39,327 nt of DNA, from assembly GCA_033696785.1 (NCBI GenBank), contig GCA_033696785.1_4550.1. One strand, 5' to 3'. The stretch comes from a phage. The notes beneath the pieces are model-generated. The model saw only the letters and a program-made list of their open reading frames with translations. It was not told where the DNA came from and did no database searches. Below, in pieces: positions 6,675 to 32,724 of this stretch. A program made the position numbers and the translations under genes. Numbering within the stretch: the first letter of the stretch is position 1; each line of letters opens with the position of its first letter.

Positions 6675-8824
6675 GTTGGTCCAATCTTACCTTCGGTATC
6701 AAGGACACATTTAAAGTTATAGAACTCACCCACCTTACGCATAGCAAGTTGAGCAATCTTGACGACTTCTTCGGCAATCTCCTGAGTACGACACGCAATC
6801 TGTAGCTCATCGTGAACCCAAGCCATGTACGCGAAGTCTCCTTCCCAGCCGTGGACATACCCGGCCTCTTCAAGCATACGTTCAGTCTCGACAATCCAGT
6901 GCTTACAGACAACCGCACCATCACCTTGAAGCAGAGCGTTAAGTGCTGAGTGTGGCGACCGGATGTGAATTCGCCGACCATCCAGACCTTTCAGCCAGCG
7001 ACGTTTCCACTTCACGATGTTTTCACCATCTACCCACTTCGACTCTGAGATGAGCGTGTTCTGCACAGCCTCTCGCAGGTCCTTGATCGCTGGTGTACCC
7101 TCAATGAATTTCTTCATCAGGGCTGCACCTTCCTTCTTACCACCACCAACTATCAGTCCAATCTTCGCGGCCCCTGCACCATACAGGAACGCATAGATGA
7201 ACGTCTTGGCGTTATTACGGAAAGCATCGTGGTCATGGCTCGACTTGTCGCGTGGGACGTTAGGTGCTAACCCAGCGTTGACTGCGTTGGCCCAGTGGAT
7301 GTCACCTTCGACCACAGTCTTCGCATAGTCGCCACCATCAAACGGAGCCGCTCGGTTCCCCAGACAACGAAGCTCAAGACCTGAAGCATCCACGCCTACT
7401 TGAATCCAAGGGTCTGGCTTACCGTCCTTCTTGTTCCACGCTGCACCGAAAGCACCACGGCAAGTCTCACCATACGGAGCACCGTTAGCCGGGACCTGAG
7501 CCATGTTTGGTGAACTATGGGTAGCACGTCCGGTTACTGCACCACATGGGTTGATTGAACCATGCATACGTCCGTCTGGACCTACAAGCTTCAACCATGC
7601 GTTCTTACCTTCAGCAGCCTGCCCGATGCGCTTCTGGACCACCAGATACTCACGGACCAGCTCTACGCAAGCCTGAGCCTCTGCGTCTGGTAACTTAACG
7701 TGTTCTAACGTCTCGTCATCAACTACAGGTTTCCCAGTGTCAGTGAAGTCCACAGGCTCCCAACCGCGCTCCATCAAGACTTTCGCTAAGTGGTCTCCGC
7801 TTCCCGGATTAAACTCAACGTAAGTGATTGGCGTGAATGGTGCTCCATCCATCGTGTCTCGCGTATCGCGTTCACAAGGTTCAAGACCTAAGCGTTGAGC
7901 TTTGTTCTTAGGTTTCTTAAAGATTCCACCGACCTTAGGATACACGACTCTCGGATACTTCGGAAGGTCCTTACCTGTCCGTGGATGCCTGAAAAACTCC
8001 TTGCCCCCCTTTGGTGCATACCAGCTACCAAAAGTAGAGCGCAGCTTGTCTAGTAACTCCGCACGTTTGACAGTGAGTTCACGATATAAGCCTTCGACCA
8101 TCTCGGTGTTCATCGGATAGCCGTTACGTTCCATCTTCGCACAGGTCCACGCAGCATCATGTTCCAGACGCAACGCATAAATCTGTTCGAAAGCGAACTG
8201 TTCAGACTGGAAGTAATACTTGTCAGTCAGGAACTTCTTGAACAACGCCAGTGTGACCACAACGTCCTGAACGTTATAGTCCAGCATCTCCTGAGACGGG
8301 AACAACCATTCGTCCCCAGACTTATATTCGATACCTTCGGCCTTGCACTTGGCAACGTAATCGTGTTTGTACTCACCCTTCATCTCACCGAGACGATAGC
8401 CCCAAGCCTCAAGAGACTGACGTCCCATCAGCTTAGGCGGCAGACGACCGGCTTTCACCGCGCCCATGTCTGAGAACTTAATGTTGGGATACATCAAGCG
8501 GCCCAGAACCAAGGTATCAATCATCTTGTGTTTCGGGAAGTTAAAGCGTTTCCCAAAGTACAGACGTTTCAGCTTGTCAATAGCCGGGACGTCGTAGTTG
8601 ATACCGTTATGGAAGACCAGCATACCCGTAGGCGTTGCAGCAATTTCTTCCACCTTCTGTACATACTCTTTGAAGCCACCGACGATACCGACCATCGGCG
8701 CTACACCATACTTAAGGGTCTCATTCGACTCGGCATTAATCAGGACCCCACAATGGAACTGGGACACGGTGTCAAGGAGACCGTTGGTCTCGATGTCGGA
8801 GCCATAAACGTTACTTAAATCCAT
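6656..8824 (-). CDS. DNA polymerase, family A (T7 gp5 homolog)
   Basis: 722 aa with an N-terminal 3'-5' exonuclease region (MDLSNVYGSDIETNGLL) and polymerase motifs (DASGLELR, FIYAFLYGAG). Confidence 0.97.
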   Translation of the reverse strand: MDLSNVYGSDIETNGLLDTVSQFHCGVLINAESNETLKYGVAPMVGIVGGFKEYVQKVEEIAATPTGMLVFHNGINYDVPAIDKLKRLYFGKRFNFPKHKMIDTLVLGRLMYPNIKFSDMGAVKAGRLPPKLMGRQSLEAWGYRLGEMKGEYKHDYVAKCKAEGIEYKSGDEWLFPSQEMLDYNVQDVVVTLALFKKFLTDKYYFQSEQFAFEQIYALRLEHDAAWTCAKMERNGYPMNTEMVEGLYRELTVKRAELLDKLRSTFGSWYAPKGGKEFFRHPRTGKDLPKYPRVVYPKVGGIFKKPKNKAQRLGLEPCERDTRDTMDGAPFTPITYVEFNPGSGDHLAKVLMERGWEPVDFTDTGKPVVDDETLEHVKLPDAEAQACVELVREYLVVQKRIGQAAEGKNAWLKLVGPDGRMHGSINPCGAVTGRATHSSPNMAQVPANGAPYGETCRGAFGAAWNKKDGKPDPWIQVGVDASGLELRCLGNRAAPFDGGDYAKTVVEGDIHWANAVNAGLAPNVPRDKSSHDHDAFRNNAKTFIYAFLYGAGAAKIGLIVGGGKKEGAALMKKFIEGTPAIKDLREAVQNTLISESKWVDGENIVKWKRRWLKGLDGRRIHIRSPHSALNALLQGDGAVVCKHWIVETERMLEEAGYVHGWEGDFAYMAWVHDELQIACRTQEIAEEVVKIAQLAMRKVGEFYNFKCVLDTEGKIGPTWKECH

Positions 8825-9216
8825 GTAGCACCTCCAATCGCTCGGGCTATTGTCCTATGCCCTACGCCGTATTTCTCTCCCAGAGAGCGGTGAGTCCATC
8901 CACCAGAAGCGTACAATCTCTTAGCCTCGGCTACAATTTCAGGTGTCAACTTGGCGCATCCCACTTTTACACCCTTTGCTGTACGTCCACGGACATCCCG
9001 GTCCTTAACGTTATCAGCTCGTGTCCCAAGCTCTAGGTGATCAGGGTTATAACATGACGGGTTGTCACACTTATGACGGACAACCAGTCCCTTTGGTATT
9101 GGACCATTAGCTTCCTCATACGCTATGAGATGTAGCCTACGGACTTTCCCATTGACCCTACGCATGCCATAGCCGAACTTATCTCGGCACCCGGTCCACT
9201 CAATACAGTCAATCAT
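8815..9216 (-). CDS. HNH homing endonuclease (paralog 1)
   Basis: 133 aa with CIEW..GYG and LVVRHKCDNPSCYNPDHLELGT core, between the primase/helicase and polymerase genes. Confidence 0.88.
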   Translation of the reverse strand: MIDCIEWTGCRDKFGYGMRRVNGKVRRLHLIAYEEANGPIPKGLVVRHKCDNPSCYNPDHLELGTRADNVKDRDVRGRTAKGVKVGCAKLTPEIVAEAKRLYASGGWTHRSLGEKYGVGHRTIARAIGGATWI

Positions 9217-9240
9217 AATGTCTCCTATAGTCTAATCATA

Positions 9241-9270
9241 AAGGCCACTCGAAGTGAATGACCTTGAGTC
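9241..9270 (-). promoter_or_regulatory. Candidate RNase III processing hairpin
   Basis: Motif AAGGCCAC-N12-ATGACCTTGAGTC (plus strand); minus-strand RNA pairs AAGGUCA with UGGCCUU. Same element at about 17020 and 25211. Confidence 0.4.
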
Positions 9271-9292
9271 TATCCTACAGTGATAGCTTAGT
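9270..9292 (-). promoter_or_regulatory. Phage RNAP promoter, CTGTAGG variant
   Basis: Plus strand cctacagtgatagcttag, i.e. minus strand AGCTATCACTGTAGG. Confidence 0.65.
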
Positions 9293-9452
9293 AGTCTGTA
9301 CGCAAGAAGTGATACATGAACTTCCGGTTAGCTTTCTTCCATGCCTCAGAGTTGAACCGCTGGTCTCCCAGAATGTTGGACAGGCAGGTTGCTTCATCGC
9401 TCCACCATTTGTACATGAACCTGTGGTAGCTGGCTTTAAGTTTCTTTAACAC
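9288..9452 (-). CDS. Small hypothetical protein (GTG start)
   Basis: About 54 aa hand-translated (VLKKLKASYHRFMYKWW...) with GGAGGA RBS, between the primase and HNH genes. Not in the ORF track. Confidence 0.3.
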   Translation of the reverse strand: MLKKLKASYHRFMYKWWSDEATCLSNILGDQRFNSEAWKKANRKFMYHFLRTDY

Positions 9453-9494
9453 TAACGGTCCTCCGTAAAATTCTTATAGTCAGCGATGTCCCGA

Positions 9495-11198
<1,704 letters not shown>

Positions 11199-11249
11199 TC
11201 ACTCCTTAATCACAAATGCGAACAGAGGGACAGGACTCACGGTCCCATC

Positions 11250-11267
11250 CCAAGGTGATAGTTTAGG
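11250..11267 (-). promoter_or_regulatory. Degenerate phage promoter-like element
   Basis: Plus strand ccaaggtgatagtttagg keeps -17 to -6 of the consensus but replaces the -5 to -1 TATAG block. Confidence 0.35.
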
Positions 11268-11478
11268 CTTTGAAGAACTGAGACAACTGGTCGGCTTTGG
11301 TGTCAGCCTGACGTGCCTTCATGCCAGCTTCCAGTGACGCGATGGTCAGCTTGTCAGCCAGAGCAGCAGCATCAGCCGCACCGTCAGCAGTCTTCTCTGC
11401 TACCTTTCGTTCCATAACCGCAGCACGACGATAACCACGCACCACCAGACGACCAAGAAATTCGATAAGTTTAATCAT
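11263..11478 (-). CDS. Hypothetical protein
   Basis: 71 aa, hydrophobic N terminus then Ala/Lys-rich helix, between the lysozyme and primase genes. No motif recognised. Confidence 0.5.
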   Translation of the reverse strand: MIKLIEFLGRLVVRGYRRAAVMERKVAEKTADGAADAAALADKLTIASLEAGMKARQADTKADQLSQFFKA

Positions 11479-11501
11479 TTAGTGTTCTCCTTTGTAGTTT
11501 A

Positions 11502-11969
11502 TTAACCGTGGTCGGAAGTGACCAGTTCATTGGTAGACAGCCAGCGTTGCAAGTCGAAACTTGGACACGCCTTTGGTGCTACGTCATGGTGTGCTTTTAT
11601 TTCTGCCTGAGGATACAGGACCTTCAGGTCAGCCAGCTTGTTGCGCAGGGAGTTCATCTGGGCTGGAGTGAAGCTAGCTTCAAACTTGCCCTTAGCGTCG
11701 ATTCCACCTACAAGGCAGACGCCTACGGACCGGGAGTTCCAATCCTTAACGTGTGACCCTACGACATTGACCGGGCGACCCTCTTCCACAGTACCATCGC
11801 GCTTGATGATAAAGTGGTAGCCTACGTCCAGCCAGCCTTGCTGCTTGTGCCACATACGGATGGTCTCTACCCCGATGTCCATCTCTGGCTTGGTAGCCGA
11901 ACAGTGAACGAAGATAGCGTCAGTCCGGGACCGTGGGTTGAACTGTACCTTACTTACCATTATTTCCAC
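11502..11969 (-). CDS. N-acetylmuramoyl-L-alanine amidase / lysozyme (T7 gp3.5 homolog)
   Basis: 155 aa with IFVHCSATKP, QGWLDVGYHFIIKRDGTVEEGR and HHDVAPKACPSFD, near-identical to T7 lysozyme. Confidence 0.95.
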   Translation of the reverse strand: MEIMVSKVQFNPRSRTDAIFVHCSATKPEMDIGVETIRMWHKQQGWLDVGYHFIIKRDGTVEEGRPVNVVGSHVKDWNSRSVGVCLVGGIDAKGKFEASFTPAQMNSLRNKLADLKVLYPQAEIKAHHDVAPKACPSFDLQRWLSTNELVTSDHG

Positions 11970-12329
11970 CTCTTGTGGTTCCTGATTCGGCTTATGGTCG
12001 CCTCACTCACTGAGTATTTTGCAGCCATAAACTTAAGGGTCTCGCTTGAGGTGCGAATCTCCTTAACGTCCTCTTCAGTTAGTTTTGAATTAAATGTCCT
12101 GCGCACTGAGCAGTCCATCATGTTTTCCGCTTGAGTCCCAAGCTCAAGGTGCTTGATGTTTACGCACGAGCGGTTATCACACTTGTGTCTTACGACAAGA
12201 CCTTCTGGTATGACACCATTGCCTCTAGCCAAGCGGCTCTATGAGCACCCATAGATTGACCACGGAATTTACGTCTTCCGTAGCCGCCCTTGTTGAGACT
12301 CTTAGTCCATTCTATGCAATCACTTTCCA
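11960..12329 (-). pseudogene. HNH endonuclease (paralog 4) disrupted by a 1-nt frameshift
   Basis: N-terminal 46 codons (MESDCIEWTKSLNKGGYGRRKFRGQSMGAHRAAWLEA) are in one frame; the C-terminal part (GNGVIPEGLVVRHKCDNRSC...) is the track ORF 11960..12232 in another, starting at TTG just after an in-frame TAG. Confidence 0.65.
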
Positions 12330-12778
12330 TTGTAAACAACGAGTTCTACGACCACTAGATTCAGGTGCTGGGTGAAGCGTTGTGCGTCCGTGGTGTGCAT
12401 CTGGAGGCGCTTATGGTTGAAGACGTGTGAGTTGCTGATCTTCACGTAAACTTCTTCAGGCTTTCCGTGGACGATGAACGTCTGGCCTACACCAATCTTG
12501 TCGATGGTCAGGACTTCACGCTTCACGGTCACAGGCGGTACGCTCGAAGCTGGTAGGACTTGAGGCTGGTCAACAACTTCTACACTGTATGTCTCGTGGC
12601 CATTCCAGCCGAAAGTCTCACCGATGTAATCCTCAGGATGCCACCCCTTCTCCACAATTACGCTATGGTCTTCTCGCTTTTCGAAAACAGCATCAGTGAA
12701 TCTGGGGTTATTCAGCAGGGTGTTCTTTGAGAATCTGTAACGTGTTCCAACTTCAAGGTCTTTACAGGTAGTCATCAC
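12320..12778 (-). CDS. Hypothetical protein, 152 aa, no T7 counterpart at this position
   Basis: Sits between the endonuclease I and lysozyme genes, which are adjacent in T7. No motif recognised. Confidence 0.7.
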   Translation of the reverse strand: MMTTCKDLEVGTRYRFSKNTLLNNPRFTDAVFEKREDHSVIVEKGWHPEDYIGETFGWNGHETYSVEVVDQPQVLPASSVPPVTVKREVLTIDKIGVGQTFIVHGKPEEVYVKISNSHVFNHKRLQMHTTDAQRFTQHLNLVVVELVVYNGK

Positions 12779-13224
12779 TTAACTCCTTTCTTCTTTGGGA
12801 TGAGTATACCTGAAGGCAGACGTACAGTCGCCTCTCGAAGCCACTCAACCGGGATAAACTTATCGGCATACTTATAGCCGTTCTTTTCGCACCATGCGCC
12901 ATACGTGGTCGGAGACCCTTTGTATAGCTTGGAGCGGGAACTTGAGAACACGAACCGTATGTCTAACTCTGGGTGCTGTTCTCGTACCAGAAGGTGCTTC
13001 TTACGGTCATCACTATCGAAGATACCTTTGGTCTCAACGATGATACCGTTAGGAAGGATAAAGTCGGGCGTGTAAAAATGATCGCTAGCAGGTACTACAT
13101 ACATAATTTTATATGCCTCATACTCAGCCCGTACCCCGTTCTTCTCCAGCCACTCTTGGTTCTTTGCTTCAAGCCCAGAGCGATACGCTCCCACTTTATG
13201 TCCTCGACTAATTGTTCTTGTCAC
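12775..13224 (-). CDS. Endonuclease I, Holliday-junction resolvase (T7 gp3 homolog)
   Basis: 149 aa with YTPDFILPNGIIVETKG and DRKKHLLVREQHPELDIRFVFSS. Confidence 0.95.
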   Translation of the reverse strand: MTRTISRGHKVGAYRSGLEAKNQEWLEKNGVRAEYEAYKIMYVVPASDHFYTPDFILPNGIIVETKGIFDSDDRKKHLLVREQHPELDIRFVFSSSRSKLYKGSPTTYGAWCEKNGYKYADKFIPVEWLREATVRLPSGILIPKKKGVK

Positions 13225-13657
13225 GCTTACGCCTCCAGTTAATAGCCTGTGGAGTAACTCCGAACATCTTAGCTAGCTCACTATTGGGCCGCGAGGACTT
13301 CAGGATGAACTCTACGTCTTCCTCGGTCAGCTTAGTCTTATTGTTAGCTTCTCCTATGAACACTGGAGGTTTCGACTTTCGCCCCCTCTCCATGCAGTCC
13401 CTCATGTTGTCCTTCTGCGTACCTAGTTCAAGGTGCTCAGGGTTACAGCAGCAGGGGTTGTCGCATTTATGTCTAACCAACATTCCATCAGGAATAGGAC
13501 CTATGAACTCCATGTATGACACACGATGTGCATAGTCCTGTTTCTGTCTTCCTATTGATATTCGACCGTATCCAGTAGGGAACCGGGAGCGTTGCCACTC
13601 CCAGCACCCGGAGGGAGAAACCTCAGAGTAATCCTCCAGTTTCTCTTTTAGATTCAT
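13208..13657 (-). CDS. HNH homing endonuclease (paralog 2)
   Basis: 149 aa with GCWEW..GYG and LVRHKCDNPCCCNPEHLELGT, plus C-terminal KLTEEDV helix. Confidence 0.88.
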   Translation of the reverse strand: MNLKEKLEDYSEVSPSGCWEWQRSRFPTGYGRISIGRQKQDYAHRVSYMEFIGPIPDGMLVRHKCDNPCCCNPEHLELGTQKDNMRDCMERGRKSKPPVFIGEANNKTKLTEEDVEFILKSSRPNSELAKMFGVTPQAINWRRKRDKNN

Positions 13658-14355
13658 TAGAAGTCGTAATCGCCACCAGAGTTGGAGTCGTCACCACCTT
13701 CGGAACCATCGTCACCAAAGTCATCAGACCCGAAGTCACCATCGGTTGACGCTTTGTAGCCGGTACCGAGGTCTTCATCATCGCCCCAGCCACCATCTCC
13801 ACCAGCACCATCACCTTTCCACTCCTTCAGTTCTACCAGAAGGCAGGACTCAAGCTGGAGCTTAACGCTTGCACCAGTCGCAGCGTTCCACTTGAACGGC
13901 AGGACTTTAAACTTGACCTTCAGCTTTGAGCCAGCGCCAATATTCGGGACGTCACGGATTAACTTAGCATCGGTGTCGTAGAACCGTAATACGATAGGCT
14001 CTGACTTACCATCCTTCAGGTAAGACGCGAAGCATTTAAACTTCAGGGTAACAGTACCGTCACCATTCTCAATCCAAGGCATGTCGCCTTCTCGTGGTTC
14101 AATAGGCTTCTTGCCACGCTGAACCTGAGGTGGGTTCTTCTCGTGGTCTGCGAGTGCTTTCGCATACGCATCGTCGTGAATCTTCTGTAAGACATCAATC
14201 ATCTTACGGACCTTCGGGTTGCTCAGGTCGAATGTCAGGTTAACCTTATGCTCACCACGCTCGTTAAACTTGGTGTCTGCTTTGTTCAGCCATGCGTAAG
14301 GCTCAACGATGCCAGCTACCGGAGTGGTGAAAGTCTTCAGTTGCTCTTTAGCCAT
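13657..14355 (-). CDS. Single-stranded DNA-binding protein (T7 gp2.5 homolog)
   Basis: 232 aa with GASVKLQLESCLLVEL and an acidic C-terminal tail ending DYDF (T7 ends DGDF). Confidence 0.95.
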   Translation of the reverse strand: MAKEQLKTFTTPVAGIVEPYAWLNKADTKFNERGEHKVNLTFDLSNPKVRKMIDVLQKIHDDAYAKALADHEKNPPQVQRGKKPIEPREGDMPWIENGDGTVTLKFKCFASYLKDGKSEPIVLRFYDTDAKLIRDVPNIGAGSKLKVKFKVLPFKWNAATGASVKLQLESCLLVELKEWKGDGAGGDGGWGDDEDLGTGYKASTDGDFGSDDFGDDGSEGGDDSNSGGDYDF

Positions 14356-14395
14356 TGGTGTAAATCTCCTAATTTAAAAGTTACGAACTGGACGT

Positions 14396-14418
14396 CTGTC
14401 CTACAGTGATAGTTTAGG
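14396..14418 (-). promoter_or_regulatory. Phage RNAP promoter (phi2.5 equivalent), CTGTAGG variant
   Basis: Plus strand tgtcctacagtgatagtttagg, overlapping the gp2 stop and upstream of the SSB gene. Confidence 0.75.
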
Positions 14419-14572
14419 TCTCAGGACGAATCCGTCCGACCACAAACCCAGCGTCCTCATACTCTTGTGACTTCAGGGTAGCCTCTTCAAGAGACTTTGC
14501 GTACAACGGAACCTCGAAGGACTGAACGCGACCCTCAAGCTCCACGATGTATTTCTTCTCAACCTCAGTCAT
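14414..14572 (-). CDS. Host RNA polymerase inhibitor (T7 gp2 homolog)
   Basis: 52 aa hand-translated: [52 protein letters not shown], with T7 gp2-like HSFEVP..AGFEV..R.RP. Not in the ORF track. Confidence 0.75.
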
Positions 14573-14688
14573 AGAATCTCCTTGTCGAGAATCTCTTCCA
14601 GCTTAACAAGTTCCTCTTCGGATAAATCAGTGAAGTCCACGAACTCCTTAATAAGCTGACACACAAAGTTAATCTGGTCTTGGTTCAT
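14569..14688 (-). CDS. Small hypothetical protein (39 aa)
   Basis: Hand-translated [39 protein letters not shown]; its stop overlaps the gp2 start (ATGA). Confidence 0.4.
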
Positions 14689-14766
14689 AAACCGCGCTCC
14701 TTCCATTGGTTGTATAACGTAATGTAGTCCGGGTTGAGAGTCTTCTCATACATCTCCCGGCACCAC

Positions 14767-15102
14767 TCACTCGGCAGCATAGCACTTACCTTTATGCAGG
14801 TCGAACAGCTCCTGATAGAAGGCTGCTTTGTTCAGGTCCTTCTCCATAGTCGCCAGCTCTGACTTCTTACCAGCCCGGAGTCGATACTTCAGGACGTTCC
14901 CCATGCAGAACCCACGGAACTCACTCACAGTCATTGACCGTGCGATAATCTCAATGGATTCCACGCCGTCAAAGACCTGATAGTGGGACGGCTTGCGGAC
15001 AGCGTCATCTTTAATATACTCGGCGTGGACTCCAAGAACAGCACCGCAGTCGCACGGACCTGAGCTGAGGACTGATCGGCACAACTCATGGTGCTTAGTC
15101 AT
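14767..15102 (-). CDS. Hypothetical protein, possibly DUF3310-like
   Basis: 111 aa with PSHY, GFCMGNVLKYRLRAGKK; family name is from memory and unverified. Confidence 0.55.
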   Translation of the reverse strand: MTKHHELCRSVLSSGPCDCGAVLGVHAEYIKDDAVRKPSHYQVFDGVESIEIIARSMTVSEFRGFCMGNVLKYRLRAGKKSELATMEKDLNKAAFYQELFDLHKGKCYAAE

Positions 15103-15355
15103 TGATCACCTCCTTCATGAATTCAACGAACAGACGAACTCGGGGCCACTTAGTGTATACCACAGGCACATTGGTCTCACGCTTCTGGCTAGCCTCTTCA
15201 GCTTTACCCGGAGTAATCAGAGCGAAGACTGTAGGTGACAGCTTAACGGCCTTCCCGAAGTAGCCCAGCTTCTCGTTGCACTTAATGCAAGCGAACGGGT
15301 TGTTGGACAGGTGGAATGTATTGGAATAACGGTTGAACATTAAGTTCTTAAACAT
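15095..15355 (-). CDS. Hypothetical protein
   Basis: 86 aa, cysteine pair (C..C), directly after promoter 15384-15406. Confidence 0.55.
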   Translation of the reverse strand: MFKNLMFNRYSNTFHLSNNPFACIKCNEKLGYFGKAVKLSPTVFALITPGKAEEASQKRETNVPVVYTKWPRVRLFVEFMKEVIND

Positions 15356-16795: not shown

Positions 16796-16799
16796 AGCG

Positions 16800-24701: not shown

Positions 24702-25147
24702 TGCTTCACCTCCTTATCTTGCTGCAAGGCTCTCACAGTGTCCTGAAGGGCCGTAATCCACTTATCTCCTTTCAGTCCGATGGCGATAAGACGTTTAGCA
24801 TCTCGTTCGTCAAGTTCGGCGTAACCATCAATGACGCATCGACCGTCACTTTGCGTGGTTCCACTCGTAGGTTTGACTCGGATGCGCAACCGCTTATTGT
24901 CAGACTGAAGATCAGCAATAATCCTGTCAGTGCTGCCTTCCAGCGAGGACATCTCGTCCTGAAACCGTTTGGACACCTTGTTGACTTCAGCTTGGACAGC
25001 AAGCCTTGTATCCTCCGATGCCTTAAGATTCGAGGTGTATTCTGCATTGACCTTAGCCTCCCATTTATTGTTAGCGGTGTGGTAGCCACCAGCAAACATC
25101 AATGCTGCAAGTAACCACGGAGCCGCTCTCTTTAAAAATTCGAGCAT
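24698..25147 (-). CDS. i-spanin (T7 gp18.5 / Rz-like)
   Basis: 149 aa with N-terminal TM helix and [24 protein letters not shown] matching T7 gp18.5. Confidence 0.88.
24772..25095 (-). CDS. o-spanin lipoprotein (T7 gp18.7 / Rz1-like), embedded in the i-spanin gene
   Basis: Contains [25 protein letters not shown] (signal peptide plus lipobox Cys) and [14 protein letters not shown], as in T7 gp18.7. Real start is probably internal to the track ORF. Confidence 0.7.
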   Translation of the reverse strand: MLVATTPLTINGRLRSMQNTPRILRHRRIQGLLSKLKSTRCPNGFRTRCPRWKAALTGLLLIFSLTISGCASESNLRVEPRKVTVDASLMVTPNLTNEMLNVLSPSD

Positions 25148-25210
25148 AGTTGCCCTCCCGGTTTATCAGATTTAACGTAGAGTCTCCTCCACTAGTTAGT
25201 GTTAGACATA

Positions 25211-25242
25211 AAGGCCACTACATATAGTAATGACCTTGAGTC
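25211..25242 (-). promoter_or_regulatory. Candidate RNase III processing hairpin (R18.5 equivalent)
   Basis: AAGGCCACTACATATAGTAATGACCTTGAGTC between the small terminase and spanin genes; no promoter core here. Confidence 0.4.
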
Positions 25243-25257
25243 TAACACTTAAGAGAT

Positions 25258-25521
25258 TTACTGCACTCCATATCCAGTGTCATTATCCTCCGTAGCGGAG
25301 AGCACCTTATCGTACTCTGCGTTCAGGGCCTCCATATCAGCGAGCGTCTTCTCGTCAACAGACACCTTGCTTAGCACGAAGTTGTGACGAGCCAGTAGCT
25401 TCTCAATGGCGTTGTAAAGCTGAGGTGAACGCTTAGAGTCATCCCGCAGGTCTTGCAGCATGAGTCGAGCACGTTCAGTATCTAGCATTAAGAGGAACTT
25501 CTCTAAGTCCATCTGCGTCAT
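25258..25521 (-). CDS. Terminase small subunit (T7 gp18 homolog)
   Basis: 87 aa with FLLMLDT and RSPQLYNAIEKLLARHNF matching T7 gp18. Confidence 0.88.
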   Translation of the reverse strand: MTQMDLEKFLLMLDTERARLMLQDLRDDSKRSPQLYNAIEKLLARHNFVLSKVSVDEKTLADMEALNAEYDKVLSATEDNDTGYGVQ

Positions 25522-25712
25522 GTTTTACCACCTCCTTTAATCGTTTTGTAGACTAGCACACCAATCTGGACAACGGTGTACGCGATAGCTGCAACGTAGA
25601 ACCATTCGTTCAGTGTGAGTCCGAAGAAGAACCTACTGGCACCATCAGCCGCAGCGGTCCCGACGATAGGAGAGGCTTTAAGGACTTCATTCTTGAAGTC
25701 TAACTCAATCAT
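25518..25712 (-). CDS. Class II holin (T7 gp17.5 homolog)
   Basis: 64 aa with IELDFKNEVLKASPIVGT and NEWFYVAAIAYTVVQIG, near-identical to T7 gp17.5. Confidence 0.88.
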   Translation of the reverse strand: MIELDFKNEVLKASPIVGTAAADGASRFFFGLTLNEWFYVAAIAYTVVQIGVLVYKTIKGGGKT

Positions 25713-25754
25713 AAAACCTCCAGTTTAAAGCGGGTCGTCCGTGACCCAAGGTTA

Positions 25755-28337
25755 TTACCTAAGCGCAATCCGCACACGCTTAATCACCACATCTCCCCCA
25801 AATGTACTAGGAGATGAATACCCGAACTTAATCTTAGACAGGAGCTCAGATAATAGGCTGGTAATCGCGTGGGTGTTGGTGTTCCCAATCTTGAAGCCAT
25901 CCACAGTACGGAGAGCTGCAACCTTGGCCTTTAAGTCCACATCATGGATTAACGTGTAGTCTCGACCAGCAGTCATAGGGAAAGACGCTGAGGACGTTAA
26001 GTCCGTTGCTTGACCTGAGCTGGAAGTCGTGGCTCGAAGCTGTAGACCTGCCGTCACCTGATACATAGAGCGGTCCCCTGTAGTGGCCTCACCGAGGGAT
26101 AAGACGTGCGCAGCTCCAGACGGTGCATACATCTCAATCTCTACAGTCAGACGCTTGAAGGACAGCCCCGGTTCCATGTAGTCTGCCATGTCGATATACG
26201 CCCGGTTGTTTGACCCGAAGCGCGCCCCTATAACCACGTTCTCAGAGTCCCGCACATATTCTATTGCACCGTTGATGAAGGTCAGCTTGGTGAACAGGTT
26301 GTATACGCCTCCAGATTTTGGACTCAACTTGTTGGACACCGCAAGTGTGCCAGACCTGAAGTCGGCCTCGATGTCGAACTTGAGGGGCTCTGGACCTGCT
26401 GAGTTGAACCAGTAGTCCAATGGCGGTGGATAGATTCTGGAGCTGGCCTTAGCAGTAGGGTGATTAAGACCGTTACCGCCGTCTATACTCGTACTGTAGA
26501 TGTCGTAATCCGTGAGAGACGCAGCTACCGGAACCTCTAATCCAGCCATGATGTCCACCCTAATCTGGCCTGTGCCTCCAATCCTCGGAGTGAACTTACC
26601 ACCGAAACGGATAATGTTTCCAGAAAATATAGGCTTTGTGTTCTTCCCAATGAACACCGTCAGTACATCACCATTAAGGGACATATGAATCTCTTGGTCG
26701 ACCACTGGCGCTGGTCCATCTCCTAACACGTTAAGCGTCATCCCCAGAGATGTCCCAGTGTAGTGCTGTAAACGCCACTTCCCTAACGCGCTTTTATATG
26801 AAAGGGTGACGAAGTTGTTCGTTAAAGACGATAGGTACATCTGGATGCCATTAACAAGGACAGCAGGGTCCACTACAGTGAGTCGTACCGAGTAGCACGG
26901 AACTTTCGACGTATAGGTATACGGGAGGTCTACCAGAGTCGATATTGTGGAGCGACGGAAGCTAAATACGCAGGGGTCTACCCCATCACGCAGAGACTTA
27001 AAGTGGCGATGGATGTCTATGAAGCTATACCCCGCAAACTTAGCATACGAACGGGTCCATCCAGCAATAGCGTCGCGTCCAGACTGTTGTTCCTCTGTGG
27101 CAGTGGCCGGGTTAACGGTAGACGGTAAGATGTTCGTGCAGAACACCAGCTCAGGTTCACTAGAGATAGACCGAAGTTCTTCGACCATCTTGTAGAACAC
27201 TGGCTGCTGGAAGTTACCTACGTCCCATCCCGGACCATCGTTCATGCCGAACGCGATGAAGATTACATCAGGCTTGGCCTCTTCGATATACGACATCCAG
27301 CGACGTGATCTATCAGTGAACCACGGGTATCCATCGCCAAGTCTTGCAGGCGGCTCATCACGGCCTAAGTCATAATATCGCATCCCGCCGATGGCTCGGT
27401 TGATAAACTCTGCCGACGGATTAGTCTCGTGGACCTTGCGTCGAAGATATGACTCAAATAGGGACGTGATGTTTGCGGTGTCGATGTTGTAGAAGCTGCT
27501 CAGTGAGTCCCCAACCAGAAGGACACGACAACCATGAGTCGCTAATCTGGCCTTAGCCTTAGCTGTAGCCGTACCGAAGGACATCGGAGAGTCTTCTGCG
27601 TGAAGTGACTCAGCTAGGGTCTGACCAGTGGCTGTTCCAATTCGCCCAGCACCAGAGGTCTGACCGAGGTCACTACGGAGACTAGCGTCGGCAACATTAA
27701 CCCACTTACCAGCGCCGACCCCACCAGCGGTTGCTGGAGTCGAACCGGGAGCAACTACCTTAGGTACAGCCCCATCCCAGCGGTAATAACTGAGGTCGGC
27801 ATCATTCCAGAGAACCTCGTTCCACTCTTTGATTGTGTACCCTAATGTGAAGGATCCAACGGGCGGACGAACCGTTACATAACCACCCACGCCCATGTTT
27901 CGAATCTTCTCAGCGAGACGTGCGGCCTCATTCTCAGAAGCCTTGGCTTGGTTAGCAGACGTCAGGGCTGAGTCAGCATATTCCTTCGCAAGGTCTGCTG
28001 TCTGGTCGCGGCCCTCTTCAGCGATGTGGATTGCCTGAAGTTCTGCGTTGGTCAGGTCACTTGCGGTCAGTACCGAACCATCACGAAAAGCAACCACTAA
28101 GTCTGTTGCCGTCTGCCTACGAACCTGAACAACGTCAAATCCAGTCTGAGACACTAAGACCTCTATGGTCGTCGGGTTCAGGAACCTATAGTCTTTATTT
28201 GGAGTCAGAACCTTATTAAGGGCCTGATTACTAGTACGTACTAGGGTGACTACCACAAAGGACCGAGACAAGTAGTCAAACGGTATCTTGAACTGAGTTG
28301 GCCCTGACGGGTAGTTATTAATCGTAATCTTAGCCAT
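25755..28337 (-). CDS. Tail fiber protein (T7 gp17 N-terminal adaptor fused to an SGNH/GDSL hydrolase-like domain and C-terminal beta-rich region)
   Basis: 860 aa; first ~150 aa match the T7 gp17 attachment domain (KIPFDYLSRSFVVVTL, YRF, LTASDL, IHIAEEGRD). Residues about 270-450 carry RVLLVGDSLSS, IFIAFGMNDGP and FIDIHRHF. Confidence 0.9.
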   Translation of the reverse strand: MAKITINNYPSGPTQFKIPFDYLSRSFVVVTLVRTSNQALNKVLTPNKDYRFLNPTTIEVLVSQTGFDVVQVRRQTATDLVVAFRDGSVLTASDLTNAELQAIHIAEEGRDQTADLAKEYADSALTSANQAKASENEAARLAEKIRNMGVGGYVTVRPPVGSFTLGYTIKEWNEVLWNDADLSYYRWDGAVPKVVAPGSTPATAGGVGAGKWVNVADASLRSDLGQTSGAGRIGTATGQTLAESLHAEDSPMSFGTATAKAKARLATHGCRVLLVGDSLSSFYNIDTANITSLFESYLRRKVHETNPSAEFINRAIGGMRYYDLGRDEPPARLGDGYPWFTDRSRRWMSYIEEAKPDVIFIAFGMNDGPGWDVGNFQQPVFYKMVEELRSISSEPELVFCTNILPSTVNPATATEEQQSGRDAIAGWTRSYAKFAGYSFIDIHRHFKSLRDGVDPCVFSFRRSTISTLVDLPYTYTSKVPCYSVRLTVVDPAVLVNGIQMYLSSLTNNFVTLSYKSALGKWRLQHYTGTSLGMTLNVLGDGPAPVVDQEIHMSLNGDVLTVFIGKNTKPIFSGNIIRFGGKFTPRIGGTGQIRVDIMAGLEVPVAASLTDYDIYSTSIDGGNGLNHPTAKASSRIYPPPLDYWFNSAGPEPLKFDIEADFRSGTLAVSNKLSPKSGGVYNLFTKLTFINGAIEYVRDSENVVIGARFGSNNRAYIDMADYMEPGLSFKRLTVEIEMYAPSGAAHVLSLGEATTGDRSMYQVTAGLQLRATTSSSGQATDLTSSASFPMTAGRDYTLIHDVDLKAKVAALRTVDGFKIGNTNTHAITSLLSELLSKIKFGYSSPSTFGGDVVIKRVRIALR

Positions 28338-28386
28338 TAGGCCTCCTTAAGTGTTTTAATTAAAGGGAGACCTCTGTAGCGCCTCC

Positions 28387-28409
28387 CGTTTCCTATAGTG
28401 ATAGTTTAG
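28387..28409 (-). promoter_or_regulatory. Phage RNAP promoter (phi17 equivalent)
   Basis: Plus strand tttcctatagtgatagtttagtc, overlapping the gp16 stop. Confidence 0.85.
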
Positions 28410-31400
28410 TCCTTGATGTGGATACCTTGCTCCTCAAACGTTCCAAGAAGCAGCTTCTGGGTAATCGGGTCGTTCGGGACAAGTTCGCGGAACGTGTTAT
28501 ACATCCCAGTCATGTAGTCTCGCTCATTGACACGAGTATCTGCCTTGAGGTAGCCAGCCAAGTTGTAAGCCGAAGCGCCAACGTTAGCAGCATATCCGAA
28601 AGCTGGAACCTGCTCAAGGAAGTTACCGACCACGTTCATCACCGGGTCACTTTTCGCAGCGCCATAGGGAATAGCACGTTCAGGCTTCTCTGTAGGCGAA
28701 CGAGGTAGAATAGACGAACGGAGCATCTTAGTGTCCTCATACCCAGCGATGCCCCCCAGAATGTTAGCTACCCCAAGTGGTCCACCAAGGTGTGAACTAC
28801 GTGATAGAGCTGCATATCCAATCATAGTCGGGTCCAGAGCTTGCTTGAGGTATTCACGGTCTCTACCATCCTGCATAGCGTAAGCCTTGACGTGAGCCTG
28901 AGCCATGTAGTAGATACCAGCCAGACCCATAGACATCACGGTAGATAGAGCAGCATCCATCGCTCGGTTGTTCTTCGTGGCGTTATAGAAGGTACGCATG
29001 GTTCGCCCATTGATGGACTTGATGACGAAGTTCTTAAACTGAAGGACAGTCTTAGCTAGAGGGCCATAAGCCTTGGCATCCATGTTAGACAGCTTATGAG
29101 GTCGTAGTAACGTTTCATCAGCGATGGTGTCACCCATACGCCACAGGTCCATAGCCCTTGGGTCCTGACTGAACGACTTCTTATCCTTGATGGTGTACTT
29201 CCCGTCTGGGCCACGAGTCACTGACTCACGGATTAGGGACTTAATGCCCTTCCACTGCTCGTCAGAGATACCAGCGGTCTTCAGCCATCGGTCATCGAAC
29301 TTACGCTTACTACCAGTCAGGCTATGCTCCACGATGTCAGACAGGAAGCCTTGACGTCCAGCATCTAACAGGTAGTTGGTCGTACCGTTGAGGAGTTTAG
29401 TGAACGGAGAGCGTACTGCAAGTTCACCAGTGTAATACTTGGCAGTCCCCAGAGCTGTAGCTGTACCACGACCGAGGTCACTGTAAGACCGCAGACGGTC
29501 AATGACATCCTGTTTAGACGGACGGATTGAGTCATCAAGTTCCTTACCGAAGAGAACATTGTGAAGGTCCTTAATCTCTGAGGCTCCGACCTTCTTGTTA
29601 CGGAAGGCTAGGTCACGGAACATCGGGACTCCATGTAGCAGCGCCCGAACGTTACCACGAGCCAGCATACCACCAATCTCCGTTAAGTTCTGAACACCCA
29701 TGTAGGCATTCTTAGCGAAGAACGATAGGTCTGTCATTGTGCGCATCACGGTAGCGAAGGCCGCATCATCAGCACCATCACGTCGAGCACGACCAGTTAG
29801 AATCTTCAGAGTGTCACGTAAGGTAGATACTTCACCTTTCAACTTACCGTCATCCCCAGCCTTGTTCATCATGGTCTCAACCAAGTCCTTCATGTCCTTC
29901 GTGGTTTTGCCTGTACCAGCCATGATAGCAATATCTCCATTAACTCGACGGTTGTAGGCAGGGACAATCTTGTCCATGTCCCACTCACGAAGGTTGTTGA
30001 CACTGAAGGTCTGACCGTTAGGTAGGACGATTGACATATCGCTATCGAACAGGTTACGAGCCTCAAGGAAGCTGTTGTTCTCCAGACCAACCAGACCGTT
30101 GATGTTCTCTTCCATTACGGATGAACGTTCGAACTGCTCGGTGTGAGAGATACCGTAAGCCTTATCGTTGGCGTACTTATCGACCGCAGCAGCAAGTCCC
30201 TCTGGAGTCAACGTAGGGTCAGCCTCTAAGAGTGCCTCGTCCACGCGTTTCTTGACTTCAGGTCGAGACGCATAGCTGGTAAGCCATGACTTCTTGATGG
30301 CCTCCTGCAACGCCTCTGGACTCCCAAGCTCCTTGATGTACAGCTCCTTCATCTGTTTGCTATACACATGAGGGACGTATGTTCCCTTGAAGTGGCTACC
30401 CGGAAAGATAGACTGAGCGTCTGGGCGACCAAACATAGCTGGGTTCTCCATCATCTCACGCTTGGCGTCGAACTGGTTCTTCAGCAGGTCATAGACTTTC
30501 AGTTCTCCCGGAGTCAGTTCAGCCTTCAGGTTTCCGCTGCCATCTTCGATAGCCATAGACACGCGCTGGTAGATGTCCTGACGGAATGCTCCAGAGTCTC
30601 GCCAGAATGCTGTCTGGAAGTACGGGTCCTTTAGTGCCTCAGTAACCGCATTGTCGATGTCGTTGTAGAACCGATGGTCCACAGCACGAAGTCTCTCGAA
30701 CACGTCTGACGCAGTGGTCCCGATTTTACCTGAGGCCCCAGACTGCATACCAGTCGGTGAACGCACTAAGTCAGCAGCTACTCCACGAATCTCAGGGTTC
30801 TCAGACCGAAGCAGCTTCAGACCAATCTCGGTAAGTCCACCAAGGTTCACACCAGCAGCGGCACGTTCCGGCTCAATCACTTCGTCAAAGACTTGACGTG
30901 TCTTAGGGTTCAGAGGGTTCTCACCAATCAGGATTGAACCATCTTCTAATCGTACACTTCCCGGCTCATTCGGCACGTCAGCGAACTTAACGCCTTGGTG
31001 ACTAAAGGTCTCCTCTCCTTCACGGATTGGCATACGCGACAGGTCTTGACCATCAACATTACGTGCAGTCTCGCGAGCTTCCAGACGTATAGCTGGACCA
31101 GCGAACTCGTTAGTGTTGCGACCTAAGGCTCTGCCTAGTCCATCAGCTATAGCAGTCATACCACCACCGAAGAGAGCACCGCCAATAATGGCCTCAGCAA
31201 CATGAGCGTCCCCACCAGCAACTGAGGTTCTAGCAATCTCGGATGCCCCAGCCAGAGCACCAGACTGAGCAGCCACAGTGAACATCTTGTTGATTAGCTT
31301 CCCACCTTTACCTACCTGCCCAGCAATAGGAACGTAGGTCAGAGGGTCCACGCCAGCACCAATCACACCAGCCGCCAGTTGAGCGCCAGTCCCAGCCTTT

Positions 31401-32293
31401 GCCTTCTCTTGGTCCAACTTCTGGTTCTCAAGCGCCAAGTTAATCAGCTCTGTCAGATTCTGAGGAGAACCGCCAGTAATGACTCCGTAATACTGAGGCA
31501 GAACCCCAGCGTTACGAATCTGGTCCAGCTCCTCACGAGACCACTTATGGTTGTTCCATCGGGTTGGGTTGAACACATCGCCAATGACATCCAGTGAGTC
31601 CTCAGTCTGACCAGCTCGTATAGCCACGCCGACCATAGAGTTCTTCACTTCAGCTTCTGTAGCCGCACCGAAACCGAACCACGTAGAGCGGTCCTCTCGT
31701 TCCTGCATGGTCTCTCCAGTAGCCTTATAGAACATCTCACCGAACGATTCGTTGGGAGCTTCAGGTGCTTGACCCTCAATGTTCAGACCAGCAGCGGTCG
31801 GAAGGTTCTCACCCAGAGCCACTTTAGGTTTAGCCTTGAGTCCTTCCGTGAGTGCGTCAAATACGGTAGCGCTTACTGGTGGAGTCTTTGGGCTGATACC
31901 GTTGAGTGCTCTTGCTACCCCCTGTTGGTAGACTTCAGGGTCGTACCGGGAGCCTGTCTCGTGGTAGCCTATAGCCTCAGACAGAGAGGCGAGGACGTCA
32001 GGGTTCGTCAGGTCGAGACTTTGTGTTGCTGGAATGCCGGTCGCAGCCACAACAGAGTTGATGTAGGACTGAGTGTCATTCTCATTAGGCGGCGCCCAGC
32101 GGTTGATAATCTTCTCGATGGAGTCATAACCTTGGCGACCGTAGCTTTGAAGGTTTTTAGCTAAAGCTCGTACCCCAGATTCAGGACTATCGAATATAAC
32201 GAATGCACCATCATCCCCTACTGCACCTTCCCATTGGTCTTTGGACTTACGGATATTTCCCGGATTTGAATTTCTTACTCCACGTGTTGCCAT
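28406..32293 (-). CDS. Internal virion protein D (T7 gp16 homolog) with a divergent N-terminal domain
   Basis: 1295 aa; body colinear with T7 gp16 (SPTGMQSGASGK, KGTYVPHVY, NNSFLEARNLFDSD, AYNRRVNGDIAIM). The first ~130 aa (NSNPGNIRKS...WEG) lack the T7 transglycosylase motif I recall. Confidence 0.93.
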   Translation of the reverse strand: MATRGVRNSNPGNIRKSKDQWEGAVGDDGAFVIFDSPESGVRALAKNLQSYGRQGYDSIEKIINRWAPPNENDTQSYINSVVAATGIPATQSLDLTNPDVLASLSEAIGYHETGSRYDPEVYQQGVARALNGISPKTPPVSATVFDALTEGLKAKPKVALGENLPTAAGLNIEGQAPEAPNESFGEMFYKATGETMQEREDRSTWFGFGAATEAEVKNSMVGVAIRAGQTEDSLDVIGDVFNPTRWNNHKWSREELDQIRNAGVLPQYYGVITGGSPQNLTELINLALENQKLDQEKAKAGTGAQLAAGVIGAGVDPLTYVPIAGQVGKGGKLINKMFTVAAQSGALAGASEIARTSVAGGDAHVAEAIIGGALFGGGMTAIADGLGRALGRNTNEFAGPAIRLEARETARNVDGQDLSRMPIREGEETFSHQGVKFADVPNEPGSVRLEDGSILIGENPLNPKTRQVFDEVIEPERAAAGVNLGGLTEIGLKLLRSENPEIRGVAADLVRSPTGMQSGASGKIGTTASDVFERLRAVDHRFYNDIDNAVTEALKDPYFQTAFWRDSGAFRQDIYQRVSMAIEDGSGNLKAELTPGELKVYDLLKNQFDAKREMMENPAMFGRPDAQSIFPGSHFKGTYVPHVYSKQMKELYIKELGSPEALQEAIKKSWLTSYASRPEVKKRVDEALLEADPTLTPEGLAAAVDKYANDKAYGISHTEQFERSSVMEENINGLVGLENNSFLEARNLFDSDMSIVLPNGQTFSVNNLREWDMDKIVPAYNRRVNGDIAIMAGTGKTTKDMKDLVETMMNKAGDDGKLKGEVSTLRDTLKILTGRARRDGADDAAFATVMRTMTDLSFFAKNAYMGVQNLTEIGGMLARGNVRALLHGVPMFRDLAFRNKKVGASEIKDLHNVLFGKELDDSIRPSKQDVIDRLRSYSDLGRGTATALGTAKYYTGELAVRSPFTKLLNGTTNYLLDAGRQGFLSDIVEHSLTGSKRKFDDRWLKTAGISDEQWKGIKSLIRESVTRGPDGKYTIKDKKSFSQDPRAMDLWRMGDTIADETLLRPHKLSNMDAKAYGPLAKTVLQFKNFVIKSINGRTMRTFYNATKNNRAMDAALSTVMSMGLAGIYYMAQAHVKAYAMQDGRDREYLKQALDPTMIGYAALSRSSHLGGPLGVANILGGIAGYEDTKMLRSSILPRSPTEKPERAIPYGAAKSDPVMNVVGNFLEQVPAFGYAANVGASAYNLAGYLKADTRVNERDYMTGMYNTFRELVPNDPITQKLLLGTFEEQGIHIKD

Positions 32294-32724
32294 GTCTTTC
32301 TCCTCAAGATATTTCTAATAGAAACCGTACTCACTCCATATCGTTCCGCTAAGAGTGAAACCTTTAGGCCGCTGGACCTTATGTCTCTCACGATTTCTTC
32401 AGTGAGCTTAGATACTCCTATGGAGCATCCTGACGCTTGGCGACCTCTAGTCACCTTATCCTTTATGTTGTCAGCTTGGGTGCCGACTTCAAGGTGGCTT
32501 GGGTTTATACAGGACGGGTTGTCGCATTTATGACGAACAACGTATCCATCGGGTATAGGACCATTAGCAAGCTCGTAGGCAAGTCTATGTGCTCCATATT
32601 TCACCCTATTAATCATTATCCTTCCATAGCCGGATTTATCAATGCTTCCGGTGAATCGGATACAGCCAGACTCTTCGGCTACTGACAGTTCTGCCAGTCT
32701 CTCACTGGCTGTCCCGTTCTTCAT
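32275..32724 (-). CDS. HNH homing endonuclease (paralog 3) in the structural module
   Basis: 149 aa with GCIRF..GYG and YVVRHKCDNPSCINPSHLEVGT, between the gp15 and gp16 genes. Confidence 0.88.
   Translation of the reverse strand: MKNGTASERLAELSVAEESGCIRFTGSIDKSGYGRIMINRVKYGAHRLAYELANGPIPDGYVVRHKCDNPSCINPSHLEVGTQADNIKDKVTRGRQASGCSIGVSKLTEEIVRDIRSSGLKVSLLAERYGVSTVSIRNILRRKTWQHVE

Follow-up and report, generated by a model that had tools for sequence, protein, structure and literature searches.

What four paralogous HNH genes are doing at junctions between conserved replication and structural genes, and how unusual it is to find four of them in a 39-kb genome, are the questions raised by the phage DNA described here (NCBI GenBank assembly GCA_033696785.1, contig GCA_033696785.1_4550.1), a stretch of 39,327 nucleotides (nt) referred to in its entirety as the window. 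An earlier note on this DNA described the genes as homing endonucleases of a single family and their number as an unusually high load. The comparisons below indicate that the four open reading frames (ORFs) are probably free-standing homing endonuclease genes of the T7 gp7.7/gp2.8 subfamily, three of them predicted to be functional and one, HNH-B, recently inactivated. The genes are arranged as follows.

HNH-A, 8815..9216, minus strand: intact gene of 133 residues with HNH_3 and helix-turn-helix (HTH) regions, between the primase/helicase region (plus a small ORF) and DNA polymerase.
HNH-B, 11960..12330, minus strand: pseudogene of a 123-residue HNH_3 plus HTH gene, between a 152-residue ORF (12320..12778) and lysozyme/amidase.
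HNH-C, 13208..13657, minus strand: intact gene of 149 residues with HNH_3 and HTH regions, between the single-stranded DNA-binding protein (SSB, gp2.5) and endonuclease I (gp3).
HNH-D, 32275..32724, minus strand: intact gene of 149 residues with HNH_3 and HTH regions, between the internal virion proteins gp15 and gp16.

Sequence, fold and family of the four proteins

Translations of the plus strand at these coordinates are full of stops and those of the minus strand are clean, so a plus-strand reading of the four ORFs is rejected. A six-frame scan of the window for H[KR]C[DN]N finds the motif in exactly four places, corresponding to HNH-A, HNH-B, HNH-C and HNH-D. The four sequences align end to end with pairwise identities of 40-52% and 34 invariant columns, the invariant regions being a C..GYG N terminus, a RHKCDN..C.N..HLE.GT...N core and a KLT.E.V helix, and on this alignment the likeness cannot be chance. 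The common motifs listed in the earlier note are borne out by the full-length alignment and the motif scan, and the copies can indeed be aligned well beyond the HNH motif; two details are corrected, namely the strand, which is minus, and the helix motif of HNH-A, which reads KLTPEIV and not KLTEEDV. The frameshift reported in B is also real, with the start of the gene at 12330 instead of 12329, and the junctions were correctly placed for A, C and D, the neighbors of B being the 152-residue ORF of unknown function and lysozyme/amidase.

All four copies match Pfam HNH_3 (PF13392) with E values of 2e-17 to 1e-16 (7.5e-17 for HNH-A) and scores of 60.6-63.0 bits against a cut-off of 24.8, and all four match phrog_59 ("HNH endonuclease") with E values of 1e-29 to 1e-38. 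No variation is seen among the four copies at the catalytic His of RHKCDN or at the Asn of (A/K)(D/E)N, and these two residues match the HK and IN positions in the core of I-HmuI. HNH-B keeps its catalytic and zinc-ligand residues, the catalytic His and Asn lying downstream of the frameshift. In the numbering of HNH-D, H65, N86 and the Cys3-His set C21/C67/C72/H77 are invariant in 40 homologues, from which H65 is the putative general base, N86 a putative metal ligand and the Cys3-His set of the nuclease core probably a structural zinc site. Weak matches to the zinc-loop family of I-PpoI are obtained with these proteins.

The AlphaFold model of HNH-D, built on 40 homologues, has a predicted local distance difference test (pLDDT) score of 88. 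It has a β-rich N-terminal part followed by strands 61-65 and 78-82 and helix 83-92, which form a ββα element, and three C-terminal helices, with residues 103-140 predicted as an HTH. The modeled fold of HNH-D is assigned as ββα-metal of the HNH_3 type. A Foldseek search with the model returns I-HmuI first (Protein Data Bank (PDB) code 1U3E, E=9e-4, 144 columns, template modeling (TM)-score 0.43) and then I-PpoI, and the sequence profile compared with solved structures finds only I-HmuI. Some distant homologues of HNH-D carry recognized Pfam HTH domains C-terminally. I-HmuI is the single-strand nicking enzyme of Bacillus phage SPO1 and has the same domain order of N-terminal sheet, HNH core and C-terminal HTH; by analogy the predicted HNH proteins probably work as it does, as monomeric HNH enzymes in which the HTH reads the sequence, with nicking the likely activity. 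There are substantial differences between the two, as I-HmuI is only ~21% identical, lacks the Cys3-His set at the aligned core positions where it is invariant in the window proteins, and has its gene inside a group I intron that interrupts a DNA polymerase gene; the window genes, by contrast, are intergenic with no intron.

Closer similarity is found to T7, where gp7.7 is 42-50% and gp2.8 is 36-41% identical to the four copies over 122-140 residues (BLASTP, E 1e-17 to 1e-40). The four copies are assigned by these alignments as full-length members of a T7 gp7.7/gp2.8-like subfamily with an HNH_3 domain and a C-terminal HTH in ~120-150 residues. Two other kinds of HNH gene were considered and rejected. 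Neither a group I intron (Rfam) nor a tRNA is found in the window, all four genes are intergenic and the DNA polymerase is uninterrupted (a single ORF of 722 residues), so intron-borne endonucleases are excluded, and a terminase-helper HNH protein (HK97 gp74-like) is excluded because none of the four is near gp18/gp19 and each is absent from most relatives.

Site occupancy, junctions and linked alleles

The window is the complete genome of a coliphage of the genus Kayfunavirus (K1F-like T7 relatives, Autographiviridae) in reverse orientation and circularly permuted, with all long ORFs on the minus strand. Its first 25 kb match about 80 Kayfunavirus genomes at 92-95% identity over at least 80% of the length, with BDX03P1 as the best match. 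Reading from high to low coordinates gives the T7 gene order of RNA polymerase, ligase, SSB, endonuclease I, lysozyme, primase/helicase, DNA polymerase, exonuclease, portal, capsid, tail, gp13-16, tail spike and terminase.

Each HNH gene with 600-nt flanks was compared with 50,697 phage records, in which ~220 Kayfunavirus records match the flanks. The same gene fills site A in 13 and site B in 3 of these ~220 records, site C in 8 of 221 and site D in 17 of 217. The closest relative, BDX03P1 (94.9% identity to the window), carries only A. A profile search of 20 fetched genomes places HNH genes at no fewer than 11 junctions (after ligase, 2.5/3, 3.2/3.5, 3.5/4, 4/5, in or after 5, 7.3/8, 15/16, 18/18.5, 18.5/19 and after 19) in combinations that vary by genome, and the combination of A, B, C and D occurs in none of the 20 genomes compared in detail. 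The earlier note had set against its own reading the case of relatives carrying the genes at identical positions with no sign of mobility; what is found is sporadic occupancy, precise empty sites and diverged flanks. The homing endonuclease identity proposed there is well supported on comparative grounds.

Genes occupying the same site in different phages are 85-98% identical in protein and 73-97% identical in DNA, the latter often under the 91-95% identity of the backbone. The positional orthologues of HNH-A are the "endonuclease" of Bas105 (98.5% amino acid identity) and 7.7B of CR44b (86%), with ratios of nonsynonymous to synonymous substitution rates (dN/dS) of 0.04-0.09. The repaired product of HNH-B is 89% identical to the intact 123-residue genes of SD6 and PH1061 (dN/dS 0.14, computed in frame from the ATG at 12330), HNH-C is 85% identical to the "HNH homing endonuclease" of TM1 at the same site (dN/dS 0.20), and HNH-D is 98% identical to the "HNH endonuclease" of EFA-1 and 91% identical to 7.7C of CR44b (dN/dS 0.07-0.19). 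Because dS among same-site orthologues reaches saturation while dN/dS is only 0.04-0.2, the HNH genes appear to be old functional lineages moving between backbones. A recent duplication within the genome is rejected by the low identity of the paralogues (40-52%) compared with the same-site orthologues (85-98%), and on these identities the four copies are old site-specific lineages and not a recent expansion within this genome. Long co-transferred tracts (identity of at least 98.5%) are not found around B, C or D in the sampled records, and the only one found is shared between A and BDX03P1 and covers ~600 nt upstream. Since the tract search matched this pair alone, recent transfers involving the window genome are not visible in the sampled records.

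Some junctions are occupied by other HNH genes in other phages. At gp15/gp16 in GA2A, Ro45lw, Ro103C3lw, TM1 (OM908436) and Pipis, and at SSB/endonuclease I in UFJF_EcSW4 and T7, the HNH genes are 39-59% identical to the window copy. This low identity at a shared junction suggests that single junctions have been invaded by, or have long retained, several distinct HNH lineages.

Base-by-base alignment of the junctions shows that the empty sites of HNH-less phages are precise (the empty A junctions were read by motif-anchored extraction). In HNH-less phages the C junction is a TAATG joining SSB to endonuclease I, the B junction has the 152-residue ORF overlapping the lysozyme ATG, the A junction has a ribosome-binding site followed by the polymerase ATG, and the D junction has the gp15 stop, 4 nt and the gp16 ATG. 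The ATG of each HNH gene is placed at or within ~5 nt of the position where the downstream gene starts in HNH-less phages. The resident ribosome-binding site is used by the HNH genes at B, C and D, and at A and B the first 9-11 nt of the HNH gene resemble the first codons of the displaced gene. The 3' end of each HNH gene supplies a new Shine-Dalgarno sequence and contains the start of the downstream gene. The four ORFs are separate genes overlapping their neighbors by 1-19 nt, save for a 2-nt gap before D: the last 10 nt of HNH-A overlap the polymerase ATG (8824), HNH-B overlaps the lysozyme start by 1 nt, the SSB stop and the ATG of HNH-C are joined in a TAATG and the 3' end of HNH-C overlaps the start of endonuclease I by 17 nt, and the ATG of HNH-D lies 2 nt after the gp15 stop with its last 19 nt overlapping the gp16 ATG (32293). 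The endonuclease I gene downstream of HNH-C is identified by its match to Pfam Phage_endo_I (E=1.6e-75). Its start at 13222-13224 (minus strand) is an apparent GTG with a GGAGG ahead of it, both within the 3' end of HNH-C, and in HNH-less relatives and in TM1 endonuclease I starts with ATG.

An additional element is present upstream of HNH-A.

Promoter-like 23-mer ACTAAGCTATCACTGTAGGATAG, 9270..9292, minus strand: phage RNA polymerase type, ~55 nt upstream of the HNH-A ATG.

With a weight matrix derived from the 11 promoters annotated in CR44b, the 23-mer scores 27.3 compared with 29.6-35.4 for the annotated promoters themselves. It occurs in the gp4-gp5 interval only of the window, Bas105 and BDX03P1, which share a near-identical A allele, and 15 other Kayfunavirus genomes, three of which carry a divergent form of A, lack it there; the interval is 12 nt shorter in HNH-less genomes. 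The element may drive extra expression of HNH-A and DNA polymerase.

Binned identities to the window, calculated for 18 relatives that were partly picked for their HNH genes and are not independent, reveal a diverged patch directly downstream of each intact HNH gene.

DNA polymerase, first eight codons (MDLSNVYG), 8801..8824, minus strand: allele linked to HNH-A and candidate target or immunity region for A.
Endonuclease I, 5' ~175 nt, 13050..13224, minus strand: diverged allele linked to HNH-C.
gp16, first ~200 nt, 32094..32293, minus strand: diverged allele linked to HNH-D, a candidate target or immunity region or co-conversion tract.

The polymerase starts with the MDLSNVY form in all six genomes with A and with MFDLK[DS]IWG in 11 of the 12 without it. 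The exception, TM1 (MT808983, ~13480-13540), combines an empty A site with the MDLSNVY allele, which looks like precise loss of the endonuclease gene or spread of a resistant allele. Over the first ~175-200 nt of endonuclease I, identity to all 15 of the HNH-C-less genomes is 72-83%, and it rises at a sharp boundary to 94-98% in the 200 nt that follow. Identity over the first 100 nt of gp16 is 80-84% in 10 of 10 HNH-D-less genomes and 87-97% in seven of eight carriers, and the end of gp15 upstream has an identity of 91-99% in nearly all genomes. One-sided Mann-Whitney tests of flank allele against HNH presence give p=0.003 (D), 0.0009 (C) and 0.013 (A), values that are descriptive only because the genomes are related and partly picked for HNH genes. 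The linkage is suggestive of co-conversion or target-site polymorphism. As the diverged patches fit the pattern of co-conversion and target-site immunity, the likely targets are inferred to be in the first codons of the four essential genes, and the predicted target sequences at the empty junctions are given below with a slash at the start codon.

Predicted target, empty A junction: GCGGAGGATTAACC / ATGTTTGACCTTAAGAGTATCTGGGGTTCTGAC
Predicted target, empty B junction: GAATTGGTGGTGTACA / ATGGTAAGTAAGGTACAGTTCAACCCACGGTCCCGG
Predicted target, empty C junction: GATTACGACTTCTA / ATGGCCCAATGGTCTGCAAAACGGGGGCACTCTGTGGG
Predicted target, empty D junction: CTAATTGGTAAGGAGTAACATA / ATGGCGACTCGTGGTATTCGCAATAACAATCC

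The same distribution could in principle be left by fossil elements that entered the T7 supergroup in ancient times and now pass by vertical inheritance and general recombination and disappear by deletion, in which case it would be uninformative on current mobility. T7-like phages are highly mosaic, the 18 Kayfunavirus relatives are 91-95% identical to the window regardless of HNH content, C and D lack a long near-identical surrounding tract in every carrier sampled and B is a pseudogene in the window, all of which are in keeping with such relics. However, neutral relics would not give dN/dS of 0.04-0.2 with intact catalytic residues, and repeated loss would have to restore, in over 200 genomes, the exact empty junction complete with its native ribosome-binding site and start. 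The diverged alleles are moreover confined to 20-200 nt beside the HNH gene with sharp boundaries, the signature expected of co-conversion or immunity, and a fossil origin for the present distribution is considered improbable.

Frameshift and decay of HNH-B

HNH-B has 371 nt compared with 372 nt in the intact orthologues, one base having been lost at ~12221-12223, where GAGACCAAT becomes GAGGCAAT (GAGG-CAAT) outside any homopolymer. The same frameshift recurs in three separately sampled assemblies (GCA_013181095.1, SRR24462312 and GCA_033696685.1), in one of which gene callers report a 90-residue C-terminal B fragment; an exact-sequence look-up of the 46-residue N-terminal fragment finds none on record. 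The recurrence of the same sequence in three assemblies indicates that the frameshift is a real allele of a circulating lineage, and its inactivation appears recent because the rest of the gene is intact, with the dN/dS of 0.14 relative to SD6 and PH1061. The lineage itself was already in public data, as a 6450-nt stretch of the window is 100% identical to the 39.4-kb contig SNPO01000027.1 of NCBI assembly GCA_013181095.1, and the exact HNH-C protein is encoded on 11 public contigs (10 of the 11 sized 20-50 kb), so that the lineage recurs in sequencing data.

A single lesion and the dN/dS of 0.14 relative to intact orthologues, together with the fact that a -1 slip after GCA would restore the frame, leave room for B being expressed after all, through either an assembly error or programmed -1 ribosomal frameshifting, which would make four active enzymes. 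An artefact of sequencing is rejected since the lesion is not in a homopolymer and is identical in the three assemblies, and programmed frameshifting is rejected since no slippery heptamer of the form X XXY YYZ is found at the lesion and the intact orthologues need no frameshift. The gene also decays independently in ZH4 and ZG49, and a functional B in the window is regarded as very improbable indeed.

The gene is intact in SD6 and PH1061. In ZH4 (OM355495.1, 1514-1886) it is frameshifted elsewhere, by an extra G in a G run, and in ZG49 (KX669227.5, 1400-2010) two C-terminal remnants are left within a duplication in which the end of endonuclease I is repeated as well. Read from these lesions, ZH4 and ZG49 are independent decay states of the HNH-B gene and represent the decay phase of the usual homing cycle. 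Shortened HNH-D orthologues (90-130 residues) are encoded by several contigs of ~39-40 kb, which suggests decay at the gp15/gp16 site as well.

The allele adjoining the broken gene is defined by the start of lysozyme.

Lysozyme, first 15 codons (MVSKVQFNPRSRT...), 11916..11960, minus strand: same as the allele of HNH-B-less phages.

This 5' stretch of lysozyme is 99-100% identical to many HNH-less records. A variant allele, MGSKVQFMPRKST..., differing from the window at ~11 of 45 nt, is present in SD6 and PH1061, where B is intact, and in ZH4, where it is frameshifted. A broken B beside a lysozyme allele of the HNH-less type fits an active B being unable to coexist with a cleavable site.

On the other side of HNH-B, the 152-residue ORF (12320..12778, minus strand) between endonuclease I and HNH-B has no Pfam match. 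In relatives the gene 3/3.5 slot is hypervariable, with 74 residues, ~150 residues of different sequence or ~163 residues, and looks like a second variable cargo site.

Homing, HNH load and related systems

The mechanism that would account for these features is modeled on I-HmuI and on the free-standing endonucleases known from T4. The protein would be a small monomer with an N-terminal β-sheet region, a His-Me nuclease core and a C-terminal three-helix HTH that reads the DNA sequence. During co-infection with an HNH-less relative the enzyme would nick or cut the DNA of that relative within or close to the opening codons of the essential gene next to the HNH site, these genes being, for A to D in order, DNA polymerase, lysozyme, endonuclease I and gp16. 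Recombinational repair from the HNH-carrying genome would then copy in the HNH gene with a short flank, and the diverged downstream allele would protect the carrier from its own enzyme.

Several points weigh against this interpretation. No closely related enzyme has been characterized, I-HmuI being ~21% identical, and cleavage and biased inheritance are only predicted. Free recombination among T7-like phages could give a sporadic distribution with mosaic flanks without any endonuclease, and the long residence at the T7 gene 2.8 and 7.7 junctions is also compatible with domestication. The flank association comes from 18 non-independent genomes partly chosen for HNH genes, is weak at A, and has SD6 as an exception at D. 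Four genomes underlie the proposed link of the B frameshift to a sensitive-type allele, and the frameshifted ZH4 keeps the variant allele.

Domestication would make these nucleases beneficial to the phage, kept for damaging co-infecting competitors (marker exclusion), degrading host DNA or processing replication intermediates, with their spread following phage fitness. Strong purifying selection (dN/dS 0.04-0.2), the long occupation of the same junctions across genera, as with T7 genes 2.8 and 7.7, and the dedicated promoter-like element of one A allele are compatible with such a role, as is the dominance of the HNH-bearing genome of Hafnia phage Ca in large plaques (PMC8861465). Most close relatives lack each gene, however, the T7 homologues are deletable and B decays repeatedly. 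A sequence-reading HTH fits poorly with bulk degradation of host DNA, and competitor exclusion and homing are mechanistically the same event, so that this part of the proposal differs in emphasis and is no true alternative. Domestication as the principal explanation is therefore judged unlikely, and free-standing homing endonuclease genes remain the preferred reading.

The size of the load depends on what is counted. A tblastn search with HNH-D (E<=1e-10) finds 1808 copies of the subfamily in 1376 phage records, a mean of 1.3, and in an evenly spaced sample of 60 carriers 42 have one copy, 15 have two, two have three and one has four, which places four copies in the top ~2% of carrier records. 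When all HNH genes are counted, CR44b and T147P5 have five, EFA-1 and PH1061 four, one T7-like phage five, and T7 three (2.8, 3.8 and 7.7). The unusually high load claimed in the earlier note thus holds for the subfamily, where four is at the top of the range, and does not hold for HNH genes as a whole, for which relatives have four to five and T7 has three; one of the four is in addition a pseudogene. A fair summary is that the HNH load is high, not exceptional. Among the records related to the window, MT350292 (Enterococcus phage EFA-1), PV615262 (Acinetobacter phage vB_Aba_01KA) and OR786095 (Staphylococcus phage MBBL139) have 85-95% DNA identity to it, and the EFA-1 record is classified as Kayfunavirus and flagged UNVERIFIED_ORG. 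The Gram-positive or Acinetobacter hosts named for these three probably reflect contamination or wrong host labels.

T7 gene 2.8 occupies the same SSB/endonuclease I junction as HNH-C with a similar 3' overlap into gene 3. The T7 copies are at 2.5/3 and 7.3/8, whereas the window has none at 7.3/8 and has copies at 2.5/3, 4/5, 3.2/3.5 and 15/16. T7 gp3.8 shares only the HNH core with the window copies and T7 gp5.3 is unrelated. CR44b, in which the HNH genes are annotated as 7.7, 7.7B, 7.7C, 3.8A and 3.8B with HTH motifs, differs from the window in having copies at 7.3/8, 18.5/19 and after 19. A search of the available literature for functional work on T7 gp7.7, gp2.8 and gp3.8 found only dispensability data, T7 genes 3.8, 5.3 and 7.7 being deletable (PMC12153263, PMC9825161).

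Homing genes of comparable arrangement are known outside this group. The window genes resemble the T4-like Seg/Mob and ICP1 nuclease genes in being intergenic beside essential genes and sporadic, with frameshifted copies, apparent flank co-conversion and location at recombination boundaries. The free-standing Seg/Mob homing endonucleases of T4 are intergenic, sporadic among relatives and co-convert flanking markers. The Seg/Mob and ICP1 enzymes belong to other families (GIY-YIG, HNH plus zinc finger, or AP2), and, unlike in the T4-like systems, each insertion in the window coincides with a start codon or falls a few nt from one, and the translational coupling of the gene downstream is formed anew. 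The ICP1 nuclease genes are located at genetic exchange boundaries (PMC10055350). Within the genus, Hafnia phage Ca has a 397-bp HNH gene that overlaps both neighbors and is present or absent within a single stock (PMC8861465), and this polymorphism indicates that such cassettes are gained or lost precisely; that gene is at an Rz/terminase site and belongs to a more distant HNH lineage. The HNH gene of K1F, in the same genus, is inside the polymerase gene (gene 5 intron endonuclease) and is likewise of a more distant lineage. The HNH genes of this phage group have been described as variable mobile elements (PMC4925675, PMC8861465 and a 2026 preprint), and multiple sporadic HNH genes are a recognized, ordinary feature of the group. 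The four genes of the window are of an already known kind, since public genomes already have near-identical genes at these positions under the label of HNH or homing endonuclease. New here are the explicit target-site predictions, the insertion at start codons with rebuilt coupling, and the pairing of a broken B with a lysozyme allele of the HNH-less type.

The practical value lies in the annotation and engineering of T7-like and K1F-like therapeutic phages, in which the four genes represent dispensable sites for cargo. Each HNH gene does, however, carry the ribosome-binding site and start overlap of the gene downstream, so that its careless removal would damage DNA polymerase, lysozyme, endonuclease I or gp16. 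The four empty-site sequences and the presumed resistant alleles provide testable target predictions for the T7 gp7.7/gp2.8-like subfamily. A general rule for the subfamily is advanced tentatively, as a possibility with the odds somewhat against it, in which cleavage is directed at the translation start region of an essential gene and the cassette lodges at or beside the start codon, taking over the resident initiation context and bringing a replacement ribosome-binding site and start. If so, the set of SD6, PH1061, the window and ZH4 would reveal the target of B within the first ~45 nt of lysozyme, and an essential gene would become translationally dependent on a selfish element whose loss would be tolerated only with exact excision.

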